From positions 1-56,178 of IMG/VR virus record IMGVR_UViG_3300031757_000001: a stretch of DNA of 56,178 nt; one strand, written 5' to 3'. The position numbers and the translations under genes are program-made. Of the stretch, positions 6,991 to 56,178 are shown in pieces. Position 1 is the stretch's first letter. Each line of letters starts with the position of its first letter. Source of the DNA: a virus. Lineage: Duplodnaviria; Caudoviricetes. A model generated the notes under the pieces. That model saw nothing but the letters and a program-made list of their open reading frames with translations, had not been told where the DNA came from and ran no database searches.

Positions 6991-7115
6991 GGGGTTGTAG
7001 CTCAGTTGGTTAGAGCCTTGTCCTCCTTCATCGTGAAATTCTAGATAAATTAGCGAACGGCTTAATTATCCGTGGAGCAAACAAGAGGTCGGTGGTTCGA
7101 ATCCACCCAACCCCT
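6991..7115 (+). tRNA. tRNA-like RNA with a ~50-nt structured insertion in the anticodon arm; isotype unassignable; no encoded CCA
   Basis: Acceptor GGGGTTG/CAACCCC, D arm GCTC-AGTTGGTTA-GAGC, stem CTTGT/ACAAG, variable AGGTC, T arm GGTGG-TTCGAAT-CCACC. 59 nt replace the 7-nt anticodon loop. Confidence 0.75.
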
Positions 7116-9931: not shown

Positions 9932-10119
9932 TTAGCTAAAATTTGCTATTATACTATAATGGATACTCAATTAAACAACTACCGAGTTCTCAAAAACGGA
10001 AAATCAATGGGGAGTTTCATTGGAACTCTCGACCAATGCGTTAAGGCGATTCGGATACTAGAAGCCTCGCTTGATCGCTATACTCAACACTCACCTTATA
10101 CCATAGGGAGAATATAATT

Positions 10120-34597: not shown

Positions 34598-35329
34598 ATG
34601 GCTTCTACATTAAAACCTTTTAGACAATACAACGAACACGAGGTACTTAACCTTTTTTCCTTCCAGCCGACATCGGACGATGCTCATGGCTCGAACTGTG
34701 TCAACATGATCGCTGACGGCGGAGAGCATACCTGGGATGCAGGACGACTTCTCGTTTCCAACGAAGTTGCGATGAAGACAACGTTGACCGATAAGTGGGA
34801 CCCCGTTACGCAGAACGACGGCGGAATGCAGGGCGACACAGCTGAGACCGCTTGGGCCACAGCCATAAAGGGCTACCTTGGCGCCAACTACAATGCGGGA
34901 AGGTCTGGCTACGAAAACGTTAGCCCCGATGGTTCTCACGTTGGTCTCTTTGGCAATTCGAACGCTACGTTTACTGCGAAGGCAGACAGCTTGGTTGCCG
35001 CTACTGAAGCTGCAGTTGGAATCTCACTCCGCTCGACATTGGCTTACGACGAGAACAACGAGAAGCTTATGTATTACACGAACAAGCAGGACGAGCTTCA
35101 GGCCGTTCTTCCTGGCGACGCCGTTCCTTGCTTGAGGCGCGGGTTGATTGCGATGGTGGTTGATGGCATAACTGCAAACACGGACGCTGGCTCGCCAGTT
35201 CACGGTTTAGATGCCTCCACAACAAAAGGAGGGCTAGTTTCGCTTACAACCGATGAATCGGCAATCGGTGAGATCGTCGCAGTTATGGACGTTAAGGCAA
35301 AGATTGCCCTTGTCCAGATTGACGTTTAA
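34598..35329 (+). CDS. Putative head decoration/structural protein
   Basis: Position between scaffold and major capsid; beta-rich C-terminus. Confidence 0.5.
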   Translation: MASTLKPFRQYNEHEVLNLFSFQPTSDDAHGSNCVNMIADGGEHTWDAGRLLVSNEVAMKTTLTDKWDPVTQNDGGMQGDTAETAWATAIKGYLGANYNAGRSGYENVSPDGSHVGLFGNSNATFTAKADSLVAATEAAVGISLRSTLAYDENNEKLMYYTNKQDELQAVLPGDAVPCLRRGLIAMVVDGITANTDAGSPVHGLDASTTKGGLVSLTTDESAIGEIVAVMDVKAKIALVQIDV

Positions 35330-38066: not shown

Positions 38067-38659
38067 AAATAAATAAAAAAGGTTTAAATGTGGAGCTCGG
38101 CAGGCAACTTGCTCCTATCCTAAAAAGAAAAGTCCAGACTAAATTGATTCGCGTCGCAAGGGAAGTTGAGGCGATGTTAATCAAGGAATTTGACTCTCAT
38201 CCCGTAACTAAGGAAATTAAAGGCGGGGAAGGCTCGGGCAATATAAGTGGTACGCTTGGGGGTTATGGCAACTTGTTTTCATATATAGGCTTTAGTGACT
38301 CAGATAATCCAATAGAAATTGTTAGATCCTTGTTGGTTAATTCCGTGAAGGTGCAGATGTTGCCCCCGAATAGCAAGGAGATGATTCAGAGCGCAATAAT
38401 ATCCTTACCCACAAAAGCCCAGATTGAGGCTGCAACTCCGCTACCCTGGGCGGGAGGCAGAAGCTGGGTAAAGGGCATAGAGGAAGGTATTTCTGGGCTA
38501 GGGCAGTATTTAAGAAAGGAGTCTGGGAGGCACGGAAGATCTGGTGGCGGCGTGCAGGCAGAGGAAAACGTACGAGGGGGTGGATTTAGGAGAGTGGATT
38601 ATTTATCTGGGATACTTCATAGCTTAACTCAAAACATAACCGCAGCGATAAAAAGGTGA
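38063..38659 (+). CDS. Putative neck/tail-completion protein
   Basis: Position; basic, Gly-rich, 198 aa. Confidence 0.45.
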   Translation: MKINKKGLNVELGRQLAPILKRKVQTKLIRVAREVEAMLIKEFDSHPVTKEIKGGEGSGNISGTLGGYGNLFSYIGFSDSDNPIEIVRSLLVNSVKVQMLPPNSKEMIQSAIISLPTKAQIEAATPLPWAGGRSWVKGIEEGISGLGQYLRKESGRHGRSGGGVQAEENVRGGGFRRVDYLSGILHSLTQNITAAIKR

Positions 38660-39972
38660 ACCAAGAACAAGAAAAGGAAATTTTACGTAGGGCGAGAGTA
38701 AGCGATAGTTTATTCGATCTTAATAACGTCCAAAGCTTTTACCCAGGAACTAAAATAAAAAATGGAGTGGACACTGGAGAGCCTTGCTTGGTTGTGGGGG
38801 TTACAAAAAAAGTAAGGAGCGAAGATTTAAGGAATGAGGATTTAATTCCTGAGTTGATTGGGGACAATCTACAGACAGACGTAGTTGAGGAAAGCGAGCT
38901 TTCCAGGTTCGGCAATTGCGGACTGAGCGAATCTTTAGGGCAGGGCGTACCGCCCTATGGGCCTTGTGATGGGCACGATTACAACTCATCGGGGGATCCT
39001 TTTGCAAATGCACTCGGGGGAATATCAATTGGCCCAAACGATCCCTTAAGGAGGTGGAGCGGAACTTTAGGATTCATAGCGAAAGACGTAACGGATTCAA
39101 AACTCGTAGGAGTTTCAAACAATCATGTTCTCGGAGATTATGTCGATACTGATTATTCTCCGCTTGGATGTTATTTGGAAAATGGGGAACTTCTTGATGA
39201 GTTTAAGTTAAATGAGGACATGAGCCCTTTGGTTCAAAATATGATACAGACCCCTAGCGTGCCCGACTCAAGCAGAAACTCCGTAATCCTGGGGGAGGTA
39301 AAAAGAGCAATTGCGACAAAATGGGGAAGCTCCGTTCTCCCAGCAAATACTGTTGATGCGGCAATAGTGGAACTCACTGAAGATATTCATCCGATGACTG
39401 ATTTGGCGCACCTGTCTGAAAGCGCGCTAAAAGTTGCCGTGGCAAAAATAGGAGAAAGAGTCAGTAAGAGTGGGAGGACAACTGGAGTAACTGGAGTTTC
39501 GAGTTCTACTAGGATAGTTAGCACGAACTACACTGTAGCCATCGGTTCTGGTTGTGAGGACGGGCTTAAAACTAAATTTACCGATTGTATTAAATTTAAC
39601 TGGAACGCCGAAAGAAGTAATAATTGGGAGTTTTTCTCTTACGCGGGAGACTCTGGATCTGCGATAATGATGGACGAGGCTACGGGGAGTAGCTTGGTTG
39701 GGCTTCTTTTCGCTGGAACATATTTTCAAAATTCCACTAGTATGCCTAATCCTCCATATGGCACTGGGGTCGCATGTAAGATACAAAACGTATTTAGCGC
39801 TCTAAACATAGAGGCGTGGAACGGCAATGTGATTTGTGGCGCAAATTCTAGATTTGTAAAAGTAAATGGAAGGTGCTACAGAAACTCGAATACTTCTAAG
39901 CCCCTGGAGCTGATCAGTCATCAAAATCATGAAAAATATGGGACCCTAGGTGAGTGCGTGGGGGATTTGTAA
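38656..39972 (+). CDS. Trypsin/chymotrypsin-fold serine protease with N-terminal pro-like domain
   Basis: GTLG, SNNHV (His), VDAAI (Asp), KSGRTTG, GDSGS (Ser) and VGLLFAG. Confidence 0.85.
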   Translation: MNQEQEKEILRRARVSDSLFDLNNVQSFYPGTKIKNGVDTGEPCLVVGVTKKVRSEDLRNEDLIPELIGDNLQTDVVEESELSRFGNCGLSESLGQGVPPYGPCDGHDYNSSGDPFANALGGISIGPNDPLRRWSGTLGFIAKDVTDSKLVGVSNNHVLGDYVDTDYSPLGCYLENGELLDEFKLNEDMSPLVQNMIQTPSVPDSSRNSVILGEVKRAIATKWGSSVLPANTVDAAIVELTEDIHPMTDLAHLSESALKVAVAKIGERVSKSGRTTGVTGVSSSTRIVSTNYTVAIGSGCEDGLKTKFTDCIKFNWNAERSNNWEFFSYAGDSGSAIMMDEATGSSLVGLLFAGTYFQNSTSMPNPPYGTGVACKIQNVFSALNIEAWNGNVICGANSRFVKVNGRCYRNSNTSKPLELISHQNHEKYGTLGECVGDL

Positions 39973-43803: not shown

Positions 43804-46800
43804 ATGTCAACAGAAAACGTACAGGTTAGAGTAGGCGCTACTGGACTTGCTGAGAGCATCAGGAGGGAGGCTAATCGCGCCCAGGCGCAATTAGCAAGCA
43901 AGCCAATTAGGCTGAATTTGGACACCAAGGGCTTTAGGCAGCCATTGGGCAGGATAACTCACGATGTAAGTGAGTTCAATAAATCCATGGACGCTTCGGT
44001 TGCTCGCGTTTTGGCATTCGGGGCAGCGATGGGGGTTATAAATGCCATCACTAATTCATTAAAGGCTATGGTTAACGGCACCGTTAAGGTCGAAAAGGCC
44101 CTCAAGGATGTTAATGTCATTTTGAATTTGAACAACAATGCTCTCGCTAAATTCGGAGACCAGTTGTTTGACGTCGCGAGAAAGACTTCTCAGTCATTTG
44201 ATACTGTGTCTGAGGCTGCGGTAGAATTTGCAAGGCAAGGCCTTGGGGCTGCGGAAACCCTTAAGAGAATTAACGACGCAATGATTCTCTCTAGGCTTTC
44301 TGGGTTAAAGGCCGCGGAGTCTGTGTCGTCCCTAACTGCCGCAGTAAACAGTTATGCGAAGGCAGGAATTTCTACAACGCAGGTAATTAATCGCATGGCG
44401 AATGTCGACGCTGCATTTGCCGTTTCGTCTGCAGATCTGGCCAATGCTATACAGAGGGCGGGGGCTTCAGCTCAGGGAGCTAAAGTTGAATTCAATGAGC
44501 TTCTAGCCGCAGTGACTTCCGTACAACAACAAACAGCAAGAGGTGGAGCGGTTATAGGTAATGCGTTCAAAAGTATATTTACAAGAATGCAAAGATCTGG
44601 AGTAAGGGAAACTCTGGAAAACTTAGGGGTTGCAACAGAAAATACAAATGGGAGTCTTAGGTCAGGTATCACGGTACTAAGGGATTATGCAAAAATATAC
44701 AAAAATTTAACTGACCAACAAAAAGCCTATACCGATCAACAAATCGCTGGACTGTTCCAGATAAACAATTTAAAGGCTTTGCTCTCTGACCTTACCTCTG
44801 AGTATTCGGTTTACGATAAAGCCTTAAGGACTGCTGACTCGAGCACAAATCAAGCCATACAAAGAAATGAAGAGCTCAATAAAACCCTCAGCTCTCTTCT
44901 ATTGAGGACTGGGGCAAGTATAGACGAACTTGCAGCGAAGCTTGGTGAGCTTGGCGCAACGGAAGGTATTTCTAAATTAGTGAATATGGTAAAGGGCGTG
45001 GCGGACTTTCTCAATGACATACTGGGTACTGGAGAGGGAGAGGGTAATACTTTTGCTAAAAATTTAGTTAAGGGAATTGGGGGTTTCCTTACGGGCCCTG
45101 GGCTTGTTATTATTGGCGCGGCGCTAGCGAAGATATTTGGCCAAGTCGCGAAATTTGGGACTAGCGCATTTAAGGAAATTTTAGGCTTAAATGTCGAAGC
45201 AAAAAGACAGGAGTCCTTACAGAAAGCCATAGGGGCCACGCTTTCACAGAATGAAAAACTATACGCACAAATAATGGGACTAGCTGGGAACACCGCGCAA
45301 CAAGAGCAGGTCTTACTAAATTATATAAGACAAGAAACAAAGGAGCGCCTAGCTCAAGAGGCGATCATGAAGAGAATCGCTTCAAGTAGTGCGTTCATTG
45401 GTGTGGGCGCTGGGGAGGCGGGGTTTGTCCCCGCGGGAAAAGGGAGGGCAAGGAAAGTAGGCAAAAAGACATTAGGAATGGCCTCTGGCTTTGTTCCAAA
45501 TTTTAGAAGAAATCCCGCTCAATCTGCAGAGTATATGGGCATGGTCTCTGGCGGCTATTCTAAAAAAGCTTTAAGAAATCCCAAAATAAAGAAAACTAAA
45601 ATTCATGATGGCAAAGGGCAGTCTTTTTGGGCGCAAACAAATGGCGCAGAAAACATTAAGACCTTTTCCAATTTATCAGGAAAGAAGGCGACCATGGTGG
45701 TTCCCGAGAAACAAAGCGATGCGTACAAGGCATTTTCAAAGAAATTAAAGAAGAAAATGGCGGCAAGTGGTTTTGTTCCTAATTTTGCAAAGATGCCTAG
45801 GAACTTCCTGGGAACAAAAGCTAGCGATATCAGGAAAGACGGGGCGAACAGGATTTCAACAAAAGAGTTTGACGCAACGAACCTTGTTTCCATGCTTGTT
45901 CCCGACAAGGGGGGCTCGCATATGGTGAAAGGCGGTGTGACTATGCCAGAGGGGCATATACAAAGGGTGAGGTTTATGAAGGTTGGTCCAAATAAAGACC
46001 CAAAGGGAAGGATTAAAAGAGGGCTAGATAAAATCACTCGAATGCAATTAAACCAAGGCTCGAAGATTTTTGCAAATCTTCTGGACAGGAATATACCAAA
46101 GGGCCCAATGACTCGATTCGGTGCCTCAGAGGTGGGAACGACTGCTGGAAGGATATTTGAAAAGGCTGCAGGATCTGTTATGAAATCTCCGTCGTTCGGC
46201 CTTGATACCGCAACGTTTGATTTCATTGGTGGAGACAGGGGCAAGGGTGGAATTTTTGATTGGAAAACCCAGCTTGCAGACGCAAAAAGTTCGAACACTC
46301 CCAGTAATCGAACCTCAATGGCAAAGAAAACAATTGAGTTTGTAATGAAGGGGGCAAAGGGGTGGAGGCAGCAATACAAAGGAGATAAAGACCAGGCGGC
46401 TGTTGAAAAAATTAAAAGAGATGTCGAGAAAGAAGTGGCCAAGACGCGGGTCGGCGGGGAGGGAGCAAAAGGAAGGAAGGTAGGGGCAATCGGCGCAAGG
46501 AGGTTTGGTTGGCGTGCGTCAGGAGGTTACGTCCCTAGCTTCTTTGATATTTTCGGCGGAACATCCAATATGGGGGTGGATCATCTTGGCCCAGCTCATG
46601 GGGTGCAAAAATTTCAGGCGCCGCCATCCCGAATGGCGGCTTCAACGGGAAATAAAATGGGTAAAAATTTCTGGATGGCCATGGATGCTCTTGGGGTTAC
46701 CAACGTATCAAGAAGCTTTAATCTCACGTCTCATAGTCGGGCCGATCTAGACACTTTTAAAAACAAAACGCTTCCAAAAAATCTTCGTAGTGGTAATATA

Positions 46801-49800
46801 GGGGATATATTTGAAGCAAAGACTGCTTACGAAAGATACGGAGATAGGGATGAAAGGGGAAAGCTAAAGTCGTTAAAATTAGAAACCTTAAAAGCTCACC
46901 TCTCTCAGGCCAGTCTGCCATTTGACTCAAGAGGTCCAGGTGGGGTTGGAGAGGCAAAGGCGTTAGATATAATGAAGGGCAAGTCTGCTGCGGGAACACA
47001 GGCTGATGTCATAACTAAAAGTTTATTCTCTGACTCTGACCGAGGCTTATTTAAGGGCATTTCTGAAAAATTAACGGTTGGGAATGGAAAGTTTGGAAAG
47101 GACTGGGCAGTCGGTGCGGATGGGGCGAAAATAAATATCCCTGGCAAGCTGGCAACAGAAATGAAGGCGGCTGGATATCACGTCTCGGGCGATCAGGCAA
47201 GCAAGGCGGAGGTAAAAAGATTTGCAAAAGCCTCTTTGTTGGGGTATAGAAAAGCTTACAACCAAAGAAAGGTTCAAAATGCAGTTCAGAAGAACTCTCC
47301 AATGTTCCAGGATAAATTAAAGCTTCCTTCGGCCGTCCCTTTCCCTGCAGGAGGAAGGAGTAGCGGAAGGTTCCAGCTCGCCGCCAGAAGAGGATTAAGG
47401 GGAATGGGAGCAAGCGGCGGTTACGTTCCTAATTTTGCATTAAGGACGTCCCCCATGAAGCCTCCTTCGTATCTCGTAAAAATGGCGGAAAAAATTCACG
47501 CCGCTGGAGGGAAGGCTCAGATTATAGGAGGTGCGCCCAGGGACCACTTGCTAGGCATGGGCAAAGGGAAGCCGAAGGATTGGGATGTAGAGGTATTTGG
47601 GTTACAGGAAAAAGCCCTTCGCTCCATGTTGGGAAAAAACGTTAGCGAAGTTGGAAAAGACTTTGGGGTATTTAAAGTAAATAATAGAGGAGCCGATTAC
47701 GACTTCTCCATGCCTCGCGCCGAAACCAGCACGGGAAGGGGCCATAGGGATTTTAAAGTCAAAAAGGATCCGTTCATGTCGGAACTAGAAGCTGCCAAGC
47801 GAAGAGACCTTACTGTAAACGCTATAAGCTATAACCCTCTAACGAAGAAATTTAGCGACGCTGGTTTAGGCGGGATGAAGGACCTTGAGGCGAAGGTAAT
47901 GAGGCCGACATCCGCAAAGTTCATGGAAGATCCCTTGAGGGTGATGAGGGCCATGCAATTTGCTGGGCGTTTCGGGTTTTCGGCAGATGCAAAGCTTATA
48001 GAATACTCAAAGGCAATATCTGGTAAATTTAACGCCCTGCCCAAGGAGAGGGTACGGGACGAATGGTATAAGTGGGCCACTAAATCCAAGGATCCGTCAA
48101 AGGGGCTGGATTTCTTGGAGAAGTCTGGCTGGATGAAGCACTTCCCTGAATTGGGTAGGCTATCTGGCATTAAGCAATCCCCAAAATGGCATCCAGAGGG
48201 GAATGTTTTTGAGCATACAAAAATGGTTGTCGACCAAATGACAAAAAGGAAAGTCTGGAAAGGTTGGTCTCCCGACGAAAGGTGGAAGGCCATGCAAACC
48301 GCATTAACTCATGATTTTGGAAAATTTGGTACCACCATTAGAACCCCGAAGGGGCTGACCTCCGCTGGCCACGCCGAAAAATCAGTAGGGGACGCAGAGG
48401 CATTTTTCCAAAGAATAATGTCCAAGGGAGAAGCCAAAAGCTTAATAAAGGAAATCGGCCCTGATATTGGGGGTCATATGTACCATACAAATTTGCCCGT
48501 AGGGAATAAGGCCATTGGGAGAATGAAGCGAAAAGGCATGAATCTAGAGAGGTCCATCGCAATGGCAAAATCGGATGTCCTTGGGCGAGGGCCACAACCT
48601 AAGGGTGCTAGAGGAATCAAAGAGGTAAGACAATTTGAAGGCCAAGTCAATAAGATGGGAGTAACAAAGGCGGCAGTAAAGCGTTTGGTTACGGGAAATG
48701 ATTTAAAAAAGGCAGGGTTAATGGAGCAGGGCCCAGGGATGAAGCCAGTACTCAACGCGCTAGAAGACGCTCAGTTAAGCGGGCAATTCTCAACCACTGC
48801 AGGAGGATTAAAATACGCAAAGAGGCATCTCGGTTTGTCTGGCGGATACGTTCCAAATTTCGGATATATGGGCAAGGGCATAAGACAAGCGATCAATAGA
48901 GAGCAATCTATGTCTGGGCAAAAAGCCGTAGTCGAAAGATCCAGGTTCCTTGATGGAGGAGTGGGGGTATACAATAAAGCTCAACAAAGAAAATATGGCA
49001 GTCTTGACAGGACGATACAAAGAGATCACCTTGGCCAAGGCCAGAGAAGGTCCACCTTAGGCGAGACTGGCTCTGGAAAAGAAAGGTATGCCGCTGGAGG
49101 TTTTGTTCCTAATTTTAGGCTGAGAAATATTTTTTCAAGAAATGACCCAGCTTTTCAAAAAAGTAGAGCCACATGGAACGAAAAAACAGACTCTTATTTA
49201 GAATACATTAATCCAAGAAAGACTCAAAAGTGGGGCACTGGACCAGTAGATAAGAAAACCAGGGAAATTGCAATGGCTGTCTCTCGTCAAAAGGGAGATA
49301 TGTTTGAAATATTCAAGTCCGCAAAAAACTCCAAGTTCATGAAAGAAGGCGGGAGGTATACGACGCAACAGCTTGGCCAGCAAATGGGGAGAAAAATAAA
49401 CCCTAAATCAACTAATTTTGAAAATTTGGTAAGCAGTTTTCCTCAATTGAAATATAGGATGCAGCGTGGACTTCATACCTCTGGTACATATAGGAACGAG
49501 TCGACGGGAGGCCTTGGCCGTAGATTTAGTGGTTTAAGTGATCTACGGTCCTACGTTAACTCCTTAAGCAAGAAAGACTTTCAGGGCTCGCTTGGCAAGG
49601 GGGCGCAAATTCGAATAAATGATTTAGAGACAAAACTAATTAAGTCTACGGCTGATGGTGGAGTTTATAGTCAAATTGGGAAGAAGTCTGGCGGGTACAT
49701 TCCAAATTTTGCGGGAGCTCGGGGAGGTTCGATGCCAAGGTCCTTTGGGTTGCAGTCGGGCAAAGCGGATCGTGGGCTCGCGGCTGATGCCCATAATGCG

Positions 49801-52800
49801 GAAGTATTTAAAGCGCTAAGGAGGCGGGGTCGCGGCACAGGGATGGGAAAGCAGGAAATTGCGGAGCAGGCGGTTGGGGCATACTTAAAAGGCGGCGTTC
49901 CCGCAAGGGTGGCGGCCGATGCCGCGACGTCCCTGATTTCGGGCCAAGCCGCTGGACTTCCCATGCCAGCGTTCCTGTTGGATATGGCCTTTATGCACAC
50001 AAAGGGCCTTGCGATGATGGGCAAGAATATTTTGACGGGGAAAAAGCTAACTACGGGGCTGGCTGCACATTATGAGCGTCAATTGACCGCCAGGAGCCCG
50101 CTTGTTGGCGGAGCCTCCACCTTCGCAGGGGGGTATGTTCCTAATTTCGCCCGCGCAGACAGGTGGACTAGCAGCTGGACAAAGTCAAGGAAATCCGCCA
50201 AGAAAAAGCGCTATGGCAGTGGTTCGGCTAAACAAAACAGACAAACTGAAGCCAATGCGTTTGTGGGTCTGGGGGACAAGGTGCAAAAATTGCAAAAAAT
50301 AGGCCAGAATCTTCATTTAGACAAAATAGACGATATATTTCAAGGGTTTTTTGCTGGAGGATATGTTCCTAATTTTGCAGGCAAGTCCGTGGGTCAGCAA
50401 ATTAAGGACGCAAGAAAAGCGTTAAAAAATTTACACCCGAACGATGTGGCAGGAAGGGAGAACCTTAACGCGAAAATTCAAGAGCTTGAAGGACGAAAGA
50501 GAGGTCATAGCAATAGAAATAAGGGGACGAAGGGGAATCCGACAGGCGCTGGAAGCGGCGATAGAAACAAAGCGCCGACGGCTAGTGCTGTAGACAAACA
50601 GTCCGTCGATCCAGACGTCAAGGCAGACAGGAAAGGCAACAGGGAGATAAAAAGAAAAAGAAGGACAGCAAGAAAAAGAAAAATAAAGATGCTGAGAATG
50701 TGGCGTGGAGCCACTAAAACCGCAGGGGGAGCGCTTGAATGGGTAAAGGGGCTGGGCCCTTTCGGAACAAAGAAGGCTACAGACTTCATTGGGGATACTC
50801 GTAAGGACAGGGGAGCCTTAAGCGGGAAGTGGCTACAGAAAGGGAAGGATTTTATTGGAAGAATTAATGCGGCGTCTGCTGGAGGCAAGGAGGGGCTGCA
50901 GAAGCATGACGATCAGCGAGGGGAAGAAAGGCGCGCCAAGAAAGCAGCTCGAGAGGCAAAACGGGCGGCGGATAGAATTGAAAAAGCTGCCGCAAAGACG
51001 GCCAGAGTGCAGGCGGCGCGAGAGCTAAAACACCAGAAAAAGCTGGATAAGGGAACCAAGTCGGAAGAAAGGAAAAAAAGAAAGGGGAGGGTATCGAGGG
51101 TGCGCTCGTACAAGCGGAAGAAATTTGTAGAAAGAATGACCAAGCCGTACAAGGATTGGAAGAGAGAAAGTGCCGAAAACAAGAAAACTAAGGCAGATAG
51201 AAACGCCGCAAGAAAGGCGCAAATTGTAGAGCAAAAGAATCGGGATTTAGAGCAAAAGAGAGCGGATGACCGTGCCAGGTTAGACAAGAAGGAGAGGAAT
51301 AAAGCGGAAAGAGCTGCTGGAAAAACAAGGAGAAAACAAAGGAAAGAAAGAGTATCGAGGGTGCGCTCGTACAAGCGGAAGAAATTTATGAAAGCCTCCC
51401 TCCGTACGGGGCTTGGAGCAGGCGGAAGGATCCTCGCGGGGGCGGCCGCGGGGCTCGCGCTACCATTAGTGGGCGGGGTTGGGGTTGGCGAAAGGGCAGT
51501 GGGTGGCGCCGCGAAGGCCGTAGGCGGACTCTCGGGTGGAATAGGGAAGGCGGCAGGGAAGGCGTACGGATGGAGCGTTCAGAAGGCCAAGAAAATAGCC
51601 TATGAGGCTAAAATTGCAAAAATCGAGAAAGACATTTTAAAGGCGAAGAAAAAAGAGTTGAAGGCCGCTGCAAAAACAGTCGTGGTTACGGATCAGAAAG
51701 TTAAAACTGTAGTCCAGCAAAATAAGGCTGCGGATAAAGTTACTAAGGCTACGGTTAAAAAAGCAGCAAGGAAAACTCCTAGCGCAGAGAAGAAAGCTTT
51801 GAATAGGGAAAACATTACCGCTAAGGCGATAAATGAAGCCAATGCGAAAGCAAAGGGTTCAAAGGGCGGTCCCCCCAAGGGCCCAAAGGGGCCATCCACC
51901 CCCACGACACCTGGAATAGATCCCGAGAAGAAGATTCGTGGAGGAATGGATAAAATGGGATCGCTCTTCATGGTTCAGATGGCTGCATCTATGGCCCTTC
52001 CTTACGCGGAGCAATGGAACGAAAAGAAAAGAGATGGGTCTGAGGGGTTTGGCAAATCTACATCTCAAGCTTCAGTCAATGCCCTGGCGACCGCGCAATA
52101 CGCGATGTTTTTAGCGTTCATACCTGGAATTGGAATTGCCGCCGCAACCGCGGCGGTTGGCATAGCTGCTCTCGTGGGCTGGATAGACGGCTTGACCGAA
52201 AGTTCCGAAGAGGCTGGCAAGAGACTGCAAGAGGAAAATGCGGAAAAGGCCAAGCGGGCAGGTCGACAGTCTGAGGCAAGAACTGGATTAATGTCGGGAA
52301 TTTCCGAACTAAGAAATAGAGAGCGCGGGGGGAACGCTGAAAAAATAAGGACCGCAAGGGATAATGTATTAAGTAGGCTCGGAGGGATTGAGGATAACAA
52401 GGAGAGGCAAAAGCTTCAGAGCATGATAAATAGCGGCGCAAGCACTTCGGATATCGCAACGGAGCTCGAGAGGAGAGAAAATATTGCAAATAGAGAAGCG
52501 CAAAAGAGAAATGCATATACCCACATAGGGGAGTCCGCCTTTGCGGATAAGGATTTTGGAACGAAGATGGGCGATGGAGATAAAATTTGGATAGACAGCG
52601 CAGGCTCTTTCTCTAGCGCAATATCAAACTTAAACAAGGATGAGCTTAAGAAGTTTAGAGATGGACTAAAAGAAACTACGGGGAAAAATGCGCTGCTAAG
52701 TGATGCTTTTGAGCAAATGCGGGCTGACCAATTGGGGAACGCATCCAGCGATCAGAGGAATCTGTCGGAAAAGAATTACAAGAACCTGTCCTTGACCTCG

Positions 52801-55800
52801 GCAGATATTGATCGCACGGAGAAAGACTTAAGTAATTTAAATATGCTCACTCCTGCGGCGCAAAATGCAATAAAGGCGGCGCGGGAAGAGCGAAACGATG
52901 CCGCGCTAAAGGCCATAATGGTCTCGATGGAGCAAGGAAACGAAAGATCTCTGGACTTTAAAGCGGGGGGAGATGCGGCCACTGCGCAAGTTGGGGTCAA
53001 CAGGGCTTTCGAGGAATTTACTAACGAGCTTAAATTTAGCGAACAAATGTTTAAACAATATAACTCTATATTGAATAAACGGGCTAAACATGAGGTGGAA
53101 ATGATGAATTTAGTTGGTAACGCAGCGATAATGTTGAGTTCTAATTTTGCCAAATCGTCAATAGATATAGCCAGGAATGCTCAGGAGTTTAATATTGACT
53201 TCGATCAAAGGATGGGCTCCTTGGGGGCATTTGAGGCGAACTCCAAAAAGTTCGAAGCAAAACGCCAGGCAATGAATGCTAATTTTGCGGTAGACCAAGC
53301 TGCTGTTTCTGCGAATAGGGGGCTATCCATAGAGTCCCTGAAACAGGGGACAAATAATCAATTAAAAAGCATGGCTAGAGAATACAATCAAGGGTCGAGG
53401 AGGACTGTGTTTGATGCCATAAGCCGAGACCCAAAGAATCTCACTAAGGCAGATAAGAAAATTCAAGACGAATTTAAGCGCCAGGTACAGAGCGGAGATG
53501 TAAATATCGATAATATTCATAAAACCGTGGGTCGAGCGGTCTCTTCCGCCAAGGTAAGAGAGGTTGAAAAGGCGGTGCAGCCCAAGGATAGCCTGTCGCT
53601 CAAGGATGCGGAAGCCAGAGTGGAGAGGGCGGAATTCGAATTGAAGAAGGCGGGCAGGGGCGAAGCGATCAAGAGACTTCAGCAGTCCATCTTCAACCAG
53701 ACAGACGAGGGGATGGGCCTGATGGGCGGTGATCCGTTTTGGATGGTGCAGGATCCAGGCTTAGGGCGTCCAGAAAGGTACTTTAGCAGCTTCCAGGGAG
53801 AGAGAGGGCAACTACCATTATCAGACCAAGAGGCCCAGGCTCGTCTCGACGAGGAGCCAAGCGCCCAGGGGGCAATCGCGGAGAAAACTAGGAAGATCGT
53901 TGATGATCGAATAGCGGCGACCAAACGCGCAGAAGAGAAATATTTTCAGGACTATGGGGAACGCGTAGACCTCATGGGGCTTGATCCGACAGCGGCATAT
54001 AAAGGACCTGACATGGGCTGGAATACTTCTGATATTAAGTGGAAGAAGCGTTCGCCGTACACCGATGATTGGGTAGATCAGGCGGCAAGGGATGGTGGTA
54101 GACCCGAGCAAGTCATATTTGATCCCGTCAGTTGGCAATCTAGTATTGAGGTGCAGCGTAATACCGCGCGTGACCTTGCGAAGACTAAGTATGAGGAGCT
54201 TGAAGCAGCCAAAAAGAACCTCAAGGATCGGAAGCGAGAGAAAAAAGCCGAAGAAGCCAGAGGCCGCAAAGATGGCGTGGAGAATTTAGGCAAATATAAA
54301 GATGACTTGGCGGGTCGGAGAGAAGTTCTTGATACGGACAAAACTGGACTAGCTCCCCGCATGGCGACCCAACTAGAAAGAGGGCAGACATCTACCGCCG
54401 CAGCAATGAAGGAAGTCGGGGAAGATTTTGCGCGAGAACAGCAGAAGATAAACGTAAACGCCGCGAAACAATCCCTACAGCTGGAGCTGCAGAGAAGGAT
54501 AATGGAGCAGCAGCTTAGGCTTGAAGAGGAACAGGCGCAAAAGAACGAGGCATTTAATAGGCTCCAGTCAAGAACCTCTGGGGGAGTAACAAAGACCACC
54601 GTACTTAATAATATTGTTGCGGATGCAAATATAGCTTCCGTCTCCGATCAGGTGGAGTTGGGTGGCGGCGCGAGCCTCGGAAATCGGGCGATTGGAGCGG
54701 AAGCGAGGCAAAGCATTGCCGCCGTAACTGGGGTGTCGGAAATTTTCACGCCAGCGGATAAGCTTGCGTTATTTGATTTTAATACCAAAGCCATGGTTGA
54801 CGCCTTGAAGGCGGGAGGAGATACCAAGTCGGCGAAGTTGGTAGAGGAAGATGCAAAAAAAGTAAGAGAGCGGATCAAGGCGGGCGAGGCCAGTCCATAC
54901 GATTCGGATGCTGAAAAATTAAATTCAGTAATAAGAGAATTAAAGGCTGTAATAGAAGGAAAATTGATCGCAGCCCTGGAAAAACCCATGGAGCCGATGT
55001 TGTTCGAGTTTCCTGCCGAGATGGATGCTGCAATGAATAGGGTTTCGGAAGAGCTGAATAAGCTTAGTTCCGAGGGATTTAAATGGTACGAAAATCTTTA
55101 CAATATTGCAACTATATTAGACCAAATAGAAAAAAACTTGAGAGAGAAGGAGGCAATAGACGCTTTCAACGAGGGGAGTGATTTAACTGGATATAACACA
55201 ACTACCGATAGGCATGGCCGAAAGCGCACTAGCGCAAGAGTAGATGGAGGGGAAATCATTTGGGGAGAAAAGGGTGAAAAAGTTGCCACGACCAAGAACG
55301 ATGACTGGCTGAATACTGTCGAGGTCACAAGGGAGGCGGATGGAGGGGTTTACTATAAGAAGCGTACAGGAAGTCACAACGCTGCCACGAATCATACCAC
55401 TTGGGAGGAGGGAGAGGAAAAGTTTATCGCTAACCCAAATAAAAAGGATCTATCTCTTCCGTCCAGAGCGGATTTAACTACCGCCGAGGGTCCGAAGTGG
55501 GACTTTTGGAGAGATAGGGTTGGGGCCTTTGAGGACAGGCGGCAGGGTATTGCGGGGAGTAGAAAACCTGCACAAGCCCCGCCCGATATAGACGCCGCCA
55601 GGAAAGCCGCTCAGGCTCGCATTGATCAATTAGACGCCATAAGTGATCAAGGCAGAGGGAGTAGCCTGTTTGATATCGTGCCGCCTAAGGACTCCAGCGA
55701 GTATAAAGACCTGAAAGGCGGCGGTAATCTTTTAAACCCGATGAGGGCTGTGGGCGATCCCTATAATGGCGGGAGGGCAATGCCTGGGCTTCGTGCCTTT

Positions 55801-56178
55801 CATGATAATTTAAACGAACGGAATTCTATCCAGAATCGCATGGCAAGCAGCCAGGGCATAAGTACGGTCGAGCATTCCCTGCCAGGCAAGCTTGACTGGA
55901 GGGGCATGCCGTCAAGTGGGAAACTCGGCCCGTCGGGAAAGAATCGAAACTGGTCGATGCCTCGGGCCAGTTCTTCTGCTAATGCAAGGTGGGAGGCTAA
56001 GCAGATGGAGGATATGGGGCCACCTCCTGCTGATGTAAGGGTTGGTACAAGCGGGCCAATGGTCCCTTTTGGTGCTCCTACCGAGCTTGCCTCACGAAGG
56101 CGATGGAAAGATACAAAGCCCGAAGAGGATAAGAAGTGGCCTCTGGCCAAGTGGATGGGCCTTGATCAAGAAAGTATC
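43804..56178 (+). CDS. Giant tail tape-measure protein (TP901-type N-terminus) with embedded cargo domains; 3' end outside the window
   Basis: ATG 43804 (MSTENVQVRVG). No in-frame stop found, consistent with its absence from the stop-terminated ORF track; at least 4125 codons. TMP core AAVEFARQG, ANVDAAFAVSSADLANAI and GGAVIGNAFKSIFTR; hydrophobic segments near 51950-52190. Confidence 0.9.
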   Translation, partial: MSTENVQVRVGATGLAESIRREANRAQAQLASKPIRLNLDTKGFRQPLGRITHDVSEFNKSMDASVARVLAFGAAMGVINAITNSLKAMVNGTVKVEKALKDVNVILNLNNNALAKFGDQLFDVARKTSQSFDTVSEAAVEFARQGLGAAETLKRINDAMILSRLSGLKAAESVSSLTAAVNSYAKAGISTTQVINRMANVDAAFAVSSADLANAIQRAGASAQGAKVEFNELLAAVTSVQQQTARGGAVIGNAFKSIFTRMQRSGVRETLENLGVATENTNGSLRSGITVLRDYAKIYKNLTDQQKAYTDQQIAGLFQINNLKALLSDLTSEYSVYDKALRTADSSTNQAIQRNEELNKTLSSLLLRTGASIDELAAKLGELGATEGISKLVNMVKGVADFLNDILGTGEGEGNTFAKNLVKGIGGFLTGPGLVIIGAALAKIFGQVAKFGTSAFKEILGLNVEAKRQESLQKAIGATLSQNEKLYAQIMGLAGNTAQQEQVLLNYIRQETKERLAQEAIMKRIASSSAFIGVGAGEAGFVPAGKGRARKVGKKTLGMASGFVPNFRRNPAQSAEYMGMVSGGYSKKALRNPKIKKTKIHDGKGQSFWAQTNGAENIKTFSNLSGKKATMVVPEKQSDAYKAFSKKLKKKMAASGFVPNFAKMPRNFLGTKASDIRKDGANRISTKEFDATNLVSMLVPDKGGSHMVKGGVTMPEGHIQRVRFMKVGPNKDPKGRIKRGLDKITRMQLNQGSKIFANLLDRNIPKGPMTRFGASEVGTTAGRIFEKAAGSVMKSPSFGLDTATFDFIGGDRGKGGIFDWKTQLADAKSSNTPSNRTSMAKKTIEFVMKGAKGWRQQYKGDKDQAAVEKIKRDVEKEVAKTRVGGEGAKGRKVGAIGARRFGWRASGGYVPSFFDIFGGTSNMGVDHLGPAHGVQKFQAPPSRMAASTGNKMGKNFWMAMDALGVTNVSRSFNLTSHSRADLDTFKNKTLPKNLRSGNIGDIFEAKTAYERYGDRDERGKLKSLKLETLKAHLSQASLPFDSRGPGGVGEAKALDIMKGKSAAGTQADVITKSLFSDSDRGLFKGISEKLTVGNGKFGKDWAVGADGAKINIPGKLATEMKAAGYHVSGDQASKAEVKRFAKASLLGYRKAYNQRKVQNAVQKNSPMFQDKLKLPSAVPFPAGGRSSGRFQLAARRGLRGMGASGGYVPNFALRTSPMKPPSYLVKMAEKIHAAGGKAQIIGGAPRDHLLGMGKGKPKDWDVEVFGLQEKALRSMLGKNVSEVGKDFGVFKVNNRGADYDFSMPRAETSTGRGHRDFKVKKDPFMSELEAAKRRDLTVNAISYNPLTKKFSDAGLGGMKDLEAKVMRPTSAKFMEDPLRVMRAMQFAGRFGFSADAKLIEYSKAISGKFNALPKERVRDEWYKWATKSKDPSKGLDFLEKSGWMKHFPELGRLSGIKQSPKWHPEGNVFEHTKMVVDQMTKRKVWKGWSPDERWKAMQTALTHDFGKFGTTIRTPKGLTSAGHAEKSVGDAEAFFQRIMSKGEAKSLIKEIGPDIGGHMYHTNLPVGNKAIGRMKRKGMNLERSIAMAKSDVLGRGPQPKGARGIKEVRQFEGQVNKMGVTKAAVKRLVTGNDLKKAGLMEQGPGMKPVLNALEDAQLSGQFSTTAGGLKYAKRHLGLSGGYVPNFGYMGKGIRQAINREQSMSGQKAVVERSRFLDGGVGVYNKAQQRKYGSLDRTIQRDHLGQGQRRSTLGETGSGKERYAAGGFVPNFRLRNIFSRNDPAFQKSRATWNEKTDSYLEYINPRKTQKWGTGPVDKKTREIAMAVSRQKGDMFEIFKSAKNSKFMKEGGRYTTQQLGQQMGRKINPKSTNFENLVSSFPQLKYRMQRGLHTSGTYRNESTGGLGRRFSGLSDLRSYVNSLSKKDFQGSLGKGAQIRINDLETKLIKSTADGGVYSQIGKKSGGYIPNFAGARGGSMPRSFGLQSGKADRGLAADAHNAEVFKALRRRGRGTGMGKQEIAEQAVGAYLKGGVPARVAADAATSLISGQAAGLPMPAFLLDMAFMHTKGLAMMGKNILTGKKLTTGLAAHYERQLTARSPLVGGASTFAGGYVPNFARADRWTSSWTKSRKSAKKKRYGSGSAKQNRQTEANAFVGLGDKVQKLQKIGQNLHLDKIDDIFQGFFAGGYVPNFAGKSVGQQIKDARKALKNLHPNDVAGRENLNAKIQELEGRKRGHSNRNKGTKGNPTGAGSGDRNKAPTASAVDKQSVDPDVKADRKGNREIKRKRRTARKRKIKMLRMWRGATKTAGGALEWVKGLGPFGTKKATDFIGDTRKDRGALSGKWLQKGKDFIGRINAASAGGKEGLQKHDDQRGEERRAKKAAREAKRAADRIEKAAAKTARVQAARELKHQKKLDKGTKSEERKKRKGRVSRVRSYKRKKFVERMTKPYKDWKRESAENKKTKADRNAARKAQIVEQKNRDLEQKRADDRARLDKKERNKAERAAGKTRRKQRKERVSRVRSYKRKKFMKASLRTGLGAGGRILAGAAAGLALPLVGGVGVGERAVGGAAKAVGGLSGGIGKAAGKAYGWSVQKAKKIAYEAKIAKIEKDILKAKKKELKAAAKTVVVTDQKVKTVVQQNKAADKVTKATVKKAARKTPSAEKKALNRENITAKAINEANAKAKGSKGGPPKGPKGPSTPTTPGIDPEKKIRGGMDKMGSLFMVQMAASMALPYAEQWNEKKRDGSEGFGKSTSQASVNALATAQYAMFLAFIPGIGIAAATAAVGIAALVGWIDGLTESSEEAGKRLQEENAEKAKRAGRQSEARTGLMSGISELRNRERGGNAEKIRTARDNVLSRLGGIEDNKERQKLQSMINSGASTSDIATELERRENIANREAQKRNAYTHIGESAFADKDFGTKMGDGDKIWIDSAGSFSSAISNLNKDELKKFRDGLKETTGKNALLSDAFEQMRADQLGNASSDQRNLSEKNYKNLSLTSADIDRTEKDLSNLNMLTPAAQNAIKAAREERNDAALKAIMVSMEQGNERSLDFKAGGDAATAQVGVNRAFEEFTNELKFSEQMFKQYNSILNKRAKHEVEMMNLVGNAAIMLSSNFAKSSIDIARNAQEFNIDFDQRMGSLGAFEANSKKFEAKRQAMNANFAVDQAAVSANRGLSIESLKQGTNNQLKSMAREYNQGSRRTVFDAISRDPKNLTKADKKIQDEFKRQVQSGDVNIDNIHKTVGRAVSSAKVREVEKAVQPKDSLSLKDAEARVERAEFELKKAGRGEAIKRLQQSIFNQTDEGMGLMGGDPFWMVQDPGLGRPERYFSSFQGERGQLPLSDQEAQARLDEEPSAQGAIAEKTRKIVDDRIAATKRAEEKYFQDYGERVDLMGLDPTAAYKGPDMGWNTSDIKWKKRSPYTDDWVDQAARDGGRPEQVIFDPVSWQSSIEVQRNTARDLAKTKYEELEAAKKNLKDRKREKKAEEARGRKDGVENLGKYKDDLAGRREVLDTDKTGLAPRMATQLERGQTSTAAAMKEVGEDFAREQQKINVNAAKQSLQLELQRRIMEQQLRLEEEQAQKNEAFNRLQSRTSGGVTKTTVLNNIVADANIASVSDQVELGGGASLGNRAIGAEARQSIAAVTGVSEIFTPADKLALFDFNTKAMVDALKAGGDTKSAKLVEEDAKKVRERIKAGEASPYDSDAEKLNSVIRELKAVIEGKLIAALEKPMEPMLFEFPAEMDAAMNRVSEELNKLSSEGFKWYENLYNIATILDQIEKNLREKEAIDAFNEGSDLTGYNTTTDRHGRKRTSARVDGGEIIWGEKGEKVATTKNDDWLNTVEVTREADGGVYYKKRTGSHNAATNHTTWEEGEEKFIANPNKKDLSLPSRADLTTAEGPKWDFWRDRVGAFEDRRQGIAGSRKPAQAPPDIDAARKAAQARIDQLDAISDQGRGSSLFDIVPPKDSSEYKDLKGGGNLLNPMRAVGDPYNGGRAMPGLRAFHDNLNERNSIQNRMASSQGISTVEHSLPGKLDWRGMPSSGKLGPSGKNRNWSMPRASSSANARWEAKQMEDMGPPPADVRVGTSGPMVPFGAPTELASRRRWKDTKPEEDKKWPLAKWMGLDQESI
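45481..50376 (+). repeat. Nine in-frame peptide linkers [AS]-[SG]-G-[YF]-[VI]-P-[NS]-F within the tape-measure ORF
   Basis: At 45481, 45763, 46519, 47413, 48838, 49093, 49687, 50125 and 50353. Conserved at protein level with synonymous codon variation. Confidence 0.92.
47437..48837 (+). other. Class II tRNA nucleotidyltransferase (CCA-adding type) + HD domain embedded in the tape-measure ORF
   Basis: IGGAPRD, DWD, RRDLTVNA, EDPLRVMRAMQFAGRF, PKERVRDEW, WHPEGNVFEH, HDFGK, GHAE, SDVLGR and VTGNDL...GPGMK; 467 aa between two linkers. Confidence 0.92.
51091..51387 (+). repeat. Perfect 36-bp direct repeat (51091-51126 and 51352-51387) encoding VSRVRSYKRKKF
   Basis: GTATCGAGGGTGCGCTCGTACAAGCGGAAGAAATTT occurs twice, in frame. 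Confidence 0.9.

Follow-up and report, generated by a model that had tools for sequence, protein, structure and literature searches.

A CCA-adding-type enzyme as a delimiter-bracketed cassette in a phage tape-measure-type protein

The DNA analysed here, from an uncultured marine phage, is the IMG/VR virus record IMGVR_UViG_3300031757_000001 (Duplodnaviria; Caudoviricetes), a metagenome-derived record of 56,178 bases with an estimated completeness of 40%. The whole of it, positions 1 to 56,178, is referred to as the window. A single open reading frame (ORF) runs on the plus strand from 43804 to 56178, with 4125 amino acid residues visible and its 3′ end past the end of the window. A tRNA nucleotidyltransferase of the CCA-adding type is located within this ORF, as a cassette of 469 residues (47437..48843, plus strand; residues 1212-1680 of the ORF) that comprises head, neck, HD body and tail, as judged from motifs, family matches and a structural model.

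The giant ORF is of the tape-measure type. Residues 125-313 (44176..44742, plus strand) match the tape-measure core domain PF10145 (PhageMin_Tail, tape-measure/minor tail) with an E value of 8.9e-23 and 81.6 bits, against a cut-off of 33.2. The ORF is positioned downstream of the terminase gene and then the capsid, connector and tail genes, and this order is common to two related viral contigs of 80 kb (L003 and L008). A PF10145/TP901-type core above cut-off together with a position after the tail genes was taken as the mark of a tape measure, and the giant ORF shows both; the assignment is based on the PF10145 match and the synteny with L003 and L008. The initial annotation had placed the enzyme inside a virion tail protein. 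This is borne out, as the segment 47437-48837 is in frame within the tape-measure ORF and corresponds to its residues 1212-1678.

Translation of this segment gives the nucleotidyltransferase motifs in the order GGAPRD, DWDVEV, the flexible loop RAETSTGRGHRDF, RRDLTVNA, EDPLRV and PKERV. The HD residues are found C-terminal of these motifs (WHPEG..H, THD, GH, GGHMYH and KSD). All the class II motifs and HD residues that had been listed from the sequence are therefore present, intact and in that order. The class II nucleotidyltransferase head (PF01743, PolyA_pol; 47521..47904, plus strand) contains motifs A and B and the flexible loop, and scores 55.5 bits on the segment and 51.8 bits on the whole ORF, against a cut-off of 23. 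The HD phosphohydrolase residues H252, H260, H292-D293, H312, H347 and D380 lie at 48190..48576 (plus strand), and a C-terminal tail resembling tRNA nucleotidyltransferase domain 2 lies at 48685..48798 (plus strand; weak Pfam match, 15.8 bits). The counterpart of the tail in L003 reaches 30.3 bits for tRNA_NucTran2_2 (cut-off 27). In relatives of the cassette, the neck (PolyA_pol_RNAbd), the HD domain and the C-terminal tRNA_NucTran2_2 domain all match their Pfam models. The HD model PF01966 is above cut-off in the relatives P0043, P0064, P0068, P0079 and P0129, and below it in P0004 and L003.

The module was aligned with 35 free-standing relatives, hand-picked from the 150 listed (34-39% identity). 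Residues G31, G32, R35, D36, D48, D50, R122, R123, D124, D165, R168 and R205 are invariant in all 36 sequences, as are the HPEG motif and the seven HD residues given above. An AlphaFold2 model of the whole module, computed from this alignment, has a pLDDT of 92.8 and a pTM of 0.89. A Foldseek comparison of this model with the Protein Data Bank (PDB) finds class II nucleotidyltransferases in 46 of 46 matches at E≤1e-3, CCA-adding enzymes foremost, the best being the A. thaliana CCA-adding enzyme (E 2e-15, TMq 0.71). The module is thus a complete class II CCA-adding-type enzyme with an HD domain, whose catalytic residues are intact and conserved and whose activity is predicted from its sequence.

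The same conservation bears on the idea that the domain has lost its enzymatic role and now serves the tape measure only as a spacer or structural element. Embedded domains reportedly lengthen tape measures, as in work on mycobacteriophage TM4, and this would favor a spacer. The catalytic carboxylates, the EDxxR template, the RRD motif and the metal ligands of the HD domain are, however, invariant across relatives at about 35-50% identity, which implies selection on catalysis and makes a purely structural role very improbable.

A second alternative concerns the reaction. The module could be a poly(A) polymerase (PAP)-like or other RNA 3′-end nucleotidyltransferase that tags host RNAs, for example for decay, with no tRNA repair. 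Class II PAPs and CCA enzymes are described as hard to distinguish by sequence (PMC2532741), and phmmer scores the E. coli poly(A) polymerase and a CCA enzyme equally against the module (59.9 and 59.1 bits). On the other hand, NF008137, which describes the multifunctional CCA addition/repair protein, ranks first among the NCBIfam models (E 1e-41, 143 bits, profile positions 5-300 of 409); the remaining CCA models score 85-97 bits and the PcnB models 81 and 47 bits. The match to the PHROG family phrog_2244 (tRNA nucleotidyltransferase) has an E value of 8e-58. The PAP I signature as given in PMC8208693, [LIV][LIV]G[RK][RK]Fx[LIV]h[HQL][LIV], is absent from P0001 and from all 276 proteins collected, and the stretch of the module aligned to it, EVGKDFGVFKV, mismatches at 3 positions. 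Motifs A (GGxxRD, DxD), B (RRD), D (EDxxR) and E, as defined in PMC2532741, are all found in the module. The same source describes a flexible loop of about 10-12 residues between motifs A and B, which is deleted in CC-adding enzymes and needed for A-addition. This loop is present here (R94-F106, with P93, R94 and H103 invariant), as expected from that source for a CCA- or A-adding enzyme. Together with the HD body and the tRNA_NucTran2_2 tail, these features make a PAP-like activity improbable.

The junctions of the cassette with the tape measure were examined in independent data. Among the matches listed, the stretch 46900-49400 is found in 20 public runs from 17 studies, all of them marine or vent metagenomes, and at least half of its sampled words are present in 10 of the 20. 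Four runs from four studies (X2-X5) were used for the junction check, and the possible source run was excluded. Contigs of X2, X4 and X5 span the upstream junction and contigs of X2, X3 and X5 the downstream one, with no joints and no indels. The same fusion is found in six further proteins, P0004 (3779 residues), P0005 (3784 residues, complete), P0010 (7702 residues), P0011 (a fragment) and the ORFs of L003 and L008 (more than 5400 residues each), whose cassettes are 48-54% identical to that of the window.

The fusion is therefore real and recurrent. A misassembled host gene had been put forward as a possible source of error. Nothing was found in favor of an assembly chimera, or of a host gene joined to a phage contig, beyond the metagenomic origin and partial completeness of the record. 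Coverage of the region by contigs from four studies, with each junction spanned in three of the four runs, the six additional fusion proteins from other assemblies, and a G+C content that is constant at 0.45-0.48 across 44-50 kb leave this explanation scarcely credible.

The cassette is bracketed by a short peptide, referred to here as the delimiter. The pattern G-[FY]-[VI]-P-[NS]-F occurs nine times in the giant ORF, compared to 0.0005 copies expected from shuffled sequences, and has no other occurrence in a six-frame translation of the window. A consensus of [AS]-x-G-[FYL]-[VI]-P-N-F-[A/S] emerges from 41 instances in five proteins. The codons for the Gly, Tyr/Phe, Pro and Phe residues differ synonymously among the copies, which indicates that the conserved object is the peptide and not a DNA repeat. 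All nine copies are on the plus strand: GFVPNF at 45487..45504 and 45769..45786, GYVPSF at 46525..46542, GYVPNF at 47419..47436 and 48844..48861 (the fourth and fifth copies, which abut the cassette upstream and downstream, respectively), GFVPNF at 49099..49116, GYIPNF at 49693..49710, and GYVPNF at 50131..50148 and 50359..50376. The last copy is followed by the motif-free C-terminal part of the tape measure. The delimiters divide the middle of the ORF into eight modules of 70-469 residues, and a delimiter is present on both sides of the CCA module in all seven fusion proteins. The initial annotation had overlooked the motif and the cassette architecture, both of which change how the fusion is read. 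Its limits for the enzyme, 47437-48837, are exact, the module being bounded by the fourth and fifth delimiters.

It had also been stated that the enzyme has no separate start or stop. There is indeed no stop codon. As for the start, a Met codon (47455-47457, plus strand; M1218) is kept in seven of seven cassettes, 4-12 residues after the delimiter, and in the window it is preceded by AAGGA at 47442-47446, 8 nucleotides upstream. The gene that was captured apparently started at this Met codon, which would now be a relic or an internal start. At the other end, the downstream delimiter starts a few residues past the end of the homology to free-standing enzymes. The cassette thus spans the ancestral Met to the native C-terminus, bracketed by the delimiter of the tape-measure family.

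The order of the modules is shuffled between proteins, and the run of modules after the CCA cassette in the window is reversed in P0004 (comparison of P0002 and P0004). Among the eight motif-bounded modules of the window ORF, only the CCA module belongs to a recognisable enzyme family. The other modules, M2-M4 and M6-M9, and the C-terminal part have no PHROG family match; M3 and M4 have no usable match in the protein atlas, and no free-standing homologue of similar length was found for M7. A reading of M3 and M4 as PD-(D/E)xK nucleases was made by eye and is not claimed. In three of the seven fusion proteins, a module with motifs resembling those of HAD phosphatases (DFDETL, LTAR, K and IDD, recognised by eye) is located directly upstream of the CCA cassette (L003 14045-14575, L008 14075-14605 and P0004 residues 23-221); it is without counterpart in the window protein. 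This module has no Pfam match, and a profile of the three sequences finds no meaningful PDB relative.

The distribution of delimiter and cassette was examined across the tape-measure family. A search for related loci with P0001 alone found none. A scan with the N-terminal domain gave 105 related loci, of which 80 were kept; 72 of these are informative, with the ORF ending inside the locus or at least 2200 residues visible, and 8 are uninformative. The CCA cassette is present in only one of the 72 informative loci, L038, which is the same contig as L008. Complete ORFs of the family have 978-3823 residues and mostly 3-4 delimiters, the longest up to 10. The layout was inspected in 35 ORFs, hand-chosen from the 59 complete ones. 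The delimiters cluster behind the N-terminal domain, and in most of these ORFs they are followed by about 900-2900 motif-free residues; the exceptions are L040 and L100, with the last delimiter merely 65 and 640 residues from the end. The delimiter is thus a core trait of the tape-measure family and the delimited region is variable, with the CCA enzyme as a rare, accessory and sporadic cargo. A Pfam scan of six long members finds one additional module, of the GNAT acetyltransferase family, and PF10145 only in the rest. The GNAT module is in L051 (3523 residues, 9 delimiters), where it is present instead of the CCA cassette, at residues 1555-1616 of the ORF starting at 10001 (24.9 bits, cut-off 20.7).

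The enzyme itself is found on other carriers as well. An exhaustive search with the cassette gives 27,051 relatives at E≤1e-3, and 31 of the 150 best representatives have at least 850 residues. Seven of these 31 were chosen by hand for Pfam analysis, five of them for their MuF-like N-termini. All five MuF-like proteins combine Phage_Mu_F, PolyA_pol and HD domains with ART-PolyVal, PBECR2/3 or inorganic pyrophosphatase domains. Such domains are hallmarks of the 'polyvalent proteins', which have been argued to be injected (Iyer et al. 2017, PMC5512222). As the enzyme clade occurs in virion-packaged polyvalent proteins, delivery at injection is a reasonable inference here too. The initial annotation had proposed an enzyme delivered pre-formed at injection. 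This interpretation is partly supported, in that a complete, conserved enzyme is truly part of a tape-measure ORF and the clade recurs in five of five tested MuF proteins, and the delivery step would follow from these carriers by analogy.

There are likenesses and differences between the two carriers. As in the polyvalent proteins described in PMC5512222, many modules, which may be unrelated to one another, are joined in one polypeptide that is probably virion-associated, the architectures are shuffled and the cargo is sporadic. In the polyvalent MuF proteins, however, the carrier is a head protein, while here it is a tape-measure protein and only one module has a recognisable enzyme family.

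Tape measures with catalytic domains also have a reported precedent. Those of mycobacteriophage TM4 and others are reported to have embedded peptidoglycan-hydrolase motifs or domains, which would likewise place a catalytic domain inside the tape measure for delivery at infection. The target of such hydrolases is the cell wall and lies outside the cytoplasm, whereas the present module is a cytoplasmic RNA enzyme of 469 residues and one of eight motif-bounded modules.

Lineage-specific repeats accompany the enzyme in other proteins. Such a repeat recurs at least three times in 8 of 15 long CCA-bearing proteins, with four kinds of repeat; these proteins were hand-chosen and the patterns were written after reading them, so the count is partly circular. 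In four proteins the CCA module has a copy of the repeat within 45 residues at both of its ends, and in three proteins at one end. The repeats that flank the CCA module in P0079, P0043, P0042, P0102, P0127 and P0008 are basic (R-T-R-R-G-x-x-E-x-V), Gly-rich (GSGN-GH-GRPG), or of the WYK or GLVPQ[TS]G type.

Two variants of the enzyme were observed among the relatives. P0093 (905 residues) contains two tandem CCA-enzyme-like units in one polypeptide. In L007 (9959-12265), a CCA-enzyme homologue is split just after WHPEG by an unrelated open frame of about 225 residues, after which the HD domain resumes; the ends of the insertion do not resemble those of inteins, and the locus has no match to an Rfam intron family.

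In other phages free-standing CCA enzymes are the rule, with 420 matching records (ORFs inspected in L001 and L023). The phrog_2244 enzymes of Vibrio phage D181, Sinorhizobium phage phiN3 and the uncultured gut phage MT835871 have the same family, length and termini as the module, and free-standing phage enzymes are 33-36% identical to it over 68-91% of the length. The two free-standing copies whose ORFs were read are separate genes of 415-450 residues, and none has the delimiter motif, whereas the module is an in-frame cassette. The E. coli-type Cca (NF008137) has the head motifs A-E, the flexible loop and the H..HD..H..H..D body in common with the module. In comparison, the module is about 55 residues longer, has a tRNA_NucTran2_2-like tail, and is an in-frame cassette in a tail protein instead of a gene. 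One apparent further case of a tape-measure fusion was rejected. In the Klebsiella phage OY978796.1 (L023 130510-134418), a 'tail length tape measure protein' label lies under the CCA match because the annotation is out of register; the labelled coding sequence is on the opposite strand and has no long ORF, and the real gene is a free-standing CCA-enzyme ORF of 415 residues.

The usual explanation for CCA-adding enzymes encoded by phages is that they assist phage tRNAs, and the window has a candidate substrate. A tRNA-like gene is located at 6991..7115 (plus strand; Rfam tRNA, 49.6 bits) in an intergenic gap. It has acceptor, D and T arms, a 58-nucleotide insert in the anticodon loop, and TGCT after the acceptor stem instead of an encoded CCA; ARAGORN does not call it. 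The module could then act mainly on phage RNA, by adding CCA to the intron-like, tRNA-like transcript of 6991-7115 or to other phage tRNAs encoded in the unseen 60% of the genome. The CCA-less gene is consistent with this, and so are the 9 and 15 tRNA genes in two phage records with free-standing homologues (G003 and G004). Against it, the two fusion-bearing related records (G001 and G002) have no tRNA matches, the job is normally done by the host enzyme, and a role in maturing late transcripts, or those of the phage itself, would leave the placement in a virion protein unexplained. We consider a main action on phage RNA quite unlikely. The suggestion in the initial annotation that the module matures the CCA-less RNAs of the phage itself accordingly has slender support, with this one gene in its favor and the two tRNA-free records against it.

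A possible processing enzyme is encoded in the structural region. The gene for a serine protease of the NAL1-like/alpha-lytic type (P0009, 438 residues; 38656..39972, plus strand) is positioned between the connector/head-completion and tail genes. Residues H157, D234 and GDSG331-334 are conserved, and the protein model resembles rice NAL1 and the S. griseus protease B/alpha-lytic proteases. The 570 homologues are mostly from metagenomic contigs; comparing P0009 with PDB sequences by phmmer gave no useful information, and a search for related loci with P0009 alone found none. The protease is a candidate for the enzyme that would process the delimiters, and the Phe at the end of the delimiter would suit a chymotrypsin-like enzyme. 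This link is weak, because P0009 has no match in G001-G004, including the two fusion-bearing records, and because the delimiter is also present in cargo-free family members. In L003 the gene at the protease position is unrelated, and the protease-bearing relatives L017 and L018 end before the tape-measure genes. Elsewhere in this region, the ORF at 34598-35329 (plus strand), between a 544-residue ORF and the capsid gene, has a weak minor capsid/cement match (PF23982, E 5e-5, below cut-off), and no prohead protease was recognised from the portal region to the capsid gene.

Delimiters and protease together raise a different possibility, that the giant gene encodes a polyprotein only. Late translation would be followed by cleavage at the delimiters within the producing cell, where the CCA enzyme and the other modules would act, for example by maintaining working tRNAs at late stages of infection, and the N- and C-terminal tape-measure pieces alone would enter the tail. 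The delimiters fit tightly around an enzyme of native length, a serine protease gene lies within the structural module, folded globular modules would obstruct tube assembly, and each of the 35 complete family ORFs looked at begins and ends with a part free of the motif. Yet the clade is also fused to MuF head proteins with polyvalent domains, argued to be injected (PMC5512222), it is not evident why an enzyme that acts late should be encoded in a tape measure, and free-standing copies are the rule in other phages. We regard the polyprotein as unlikely, while it is the alternative with the most in its favor.

The reading we prefer, with about an even chance of being correct, is that of an accessory tRNA 3′-end repair or counter-defence enzyme delivered with the tape measure. 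In this view, a complete phage tRNA nucleotidyltransferase that was once free-standing has become a cassette in the variable middle of a modular tape measure. The tape measure would bring the enzyme into the virion, from which it would exit through the tail with the DNA, either in transit as an unfolded chain or released by cleavage at the delimiters (with Phe at P1), for which the NAL1-like serine protease and a host protease are possible agents. Once in the next host, the enzyme would rebuild tRNA 3′ ends by CCA addition, or clean them through its HD domain by taking off 3′ or cyclic phosphates, before phage gene expression. Acceptor-end damage would be countered in this way, and the CCA-less tRNA-like RNA of the phage perhaps matured too. 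For the counter-defence role in particular, we infer it from the position of the cassette in injected proteins and its sporadic distribution.

Several observations weigh against this reading. The delimiter is core to the family even without cargo, with 3-4 copies in forms of 1700-2250 residues, and its presence in cargo-free members means that it may have a structural role. G001 and G002 (57-60% complete) carry the delimiter motif without a protease homologue. With regard to the enzyme, besides the equal phmmer scores noted above, every NCBIfam equivalog cut-off is missed (best 143 bits, against 451), so the exact activity is not assured and the module is a distant relative of NF008137 rather than an equivalog. 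A folded domain of 52 kDa cannot fit the lumen of the tail tube, and therefore storage and travel in an unfolded state, or cleavage before assembly, would be needed; other ejected phage proteins are thought to travel unfolded. Finally, cells already own a CCA-adding enzyme, which leaves the benefit of a phage copy unproven.

A wider form of this proposal is more tentative, and we consider it possible but clearly less probable than delivery of the enzyme as such. Tape measures of this marine-phage family may serve as a modular injection platform. Between their N-terminal and C-terminal parts they would have a 'cargo bay', in which cytoplasmic effectors separated by delimiters are swapped in and out, with G-[FYL]-[VI]-P-N-F as a processing or docking peptide. 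The CCA/HD enzyme would reverse tRNA-end damage by defence toxins, such as trimming, 3′-phosphates, pyrophosphorylation or extra nucleotides, and would be a recurrent, so far undescribed cargo of injected polyvalent proteins on tape-measure, MuF and other carriers, each lineage with delimiters of its own.

We judge that the finding extends the phage CCA-adding enzymes on the one hand and the polyvalent virion proteins on the other, both of them known kinds. New here are the delimiter-bracketed cassette, its rarity as cargo, and the recurrence of the enzyme clade in polyvalent phage proteins. No report of a tape-measure/CCA fusion, of CCA-bearing polyvalent proteins or of the delimiter motif was found in open-access papers and preprints, supplements aside. 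The terms 'tape measure', 'CCA', 'linker' and 'processing site' do not occur in the main text of PMC5512222, the supplements of which may list architectures.

The presence of a CCA enzyme as cargo of tape-measure and MuF proteins points to action at the first moment of infection. It raises the testable question of whether phages inject RNA-repair enzymes to pre-empt tRNA-targeting immunity. A tape measure can carry large cytoplasmic enzymes, in proteins of up to 7702 residues, which bears on how such proteins are stored in tails and threaded through them. With the delimiter peptide as a simple sequence marker, cargo of this sort can be located and taken apart.

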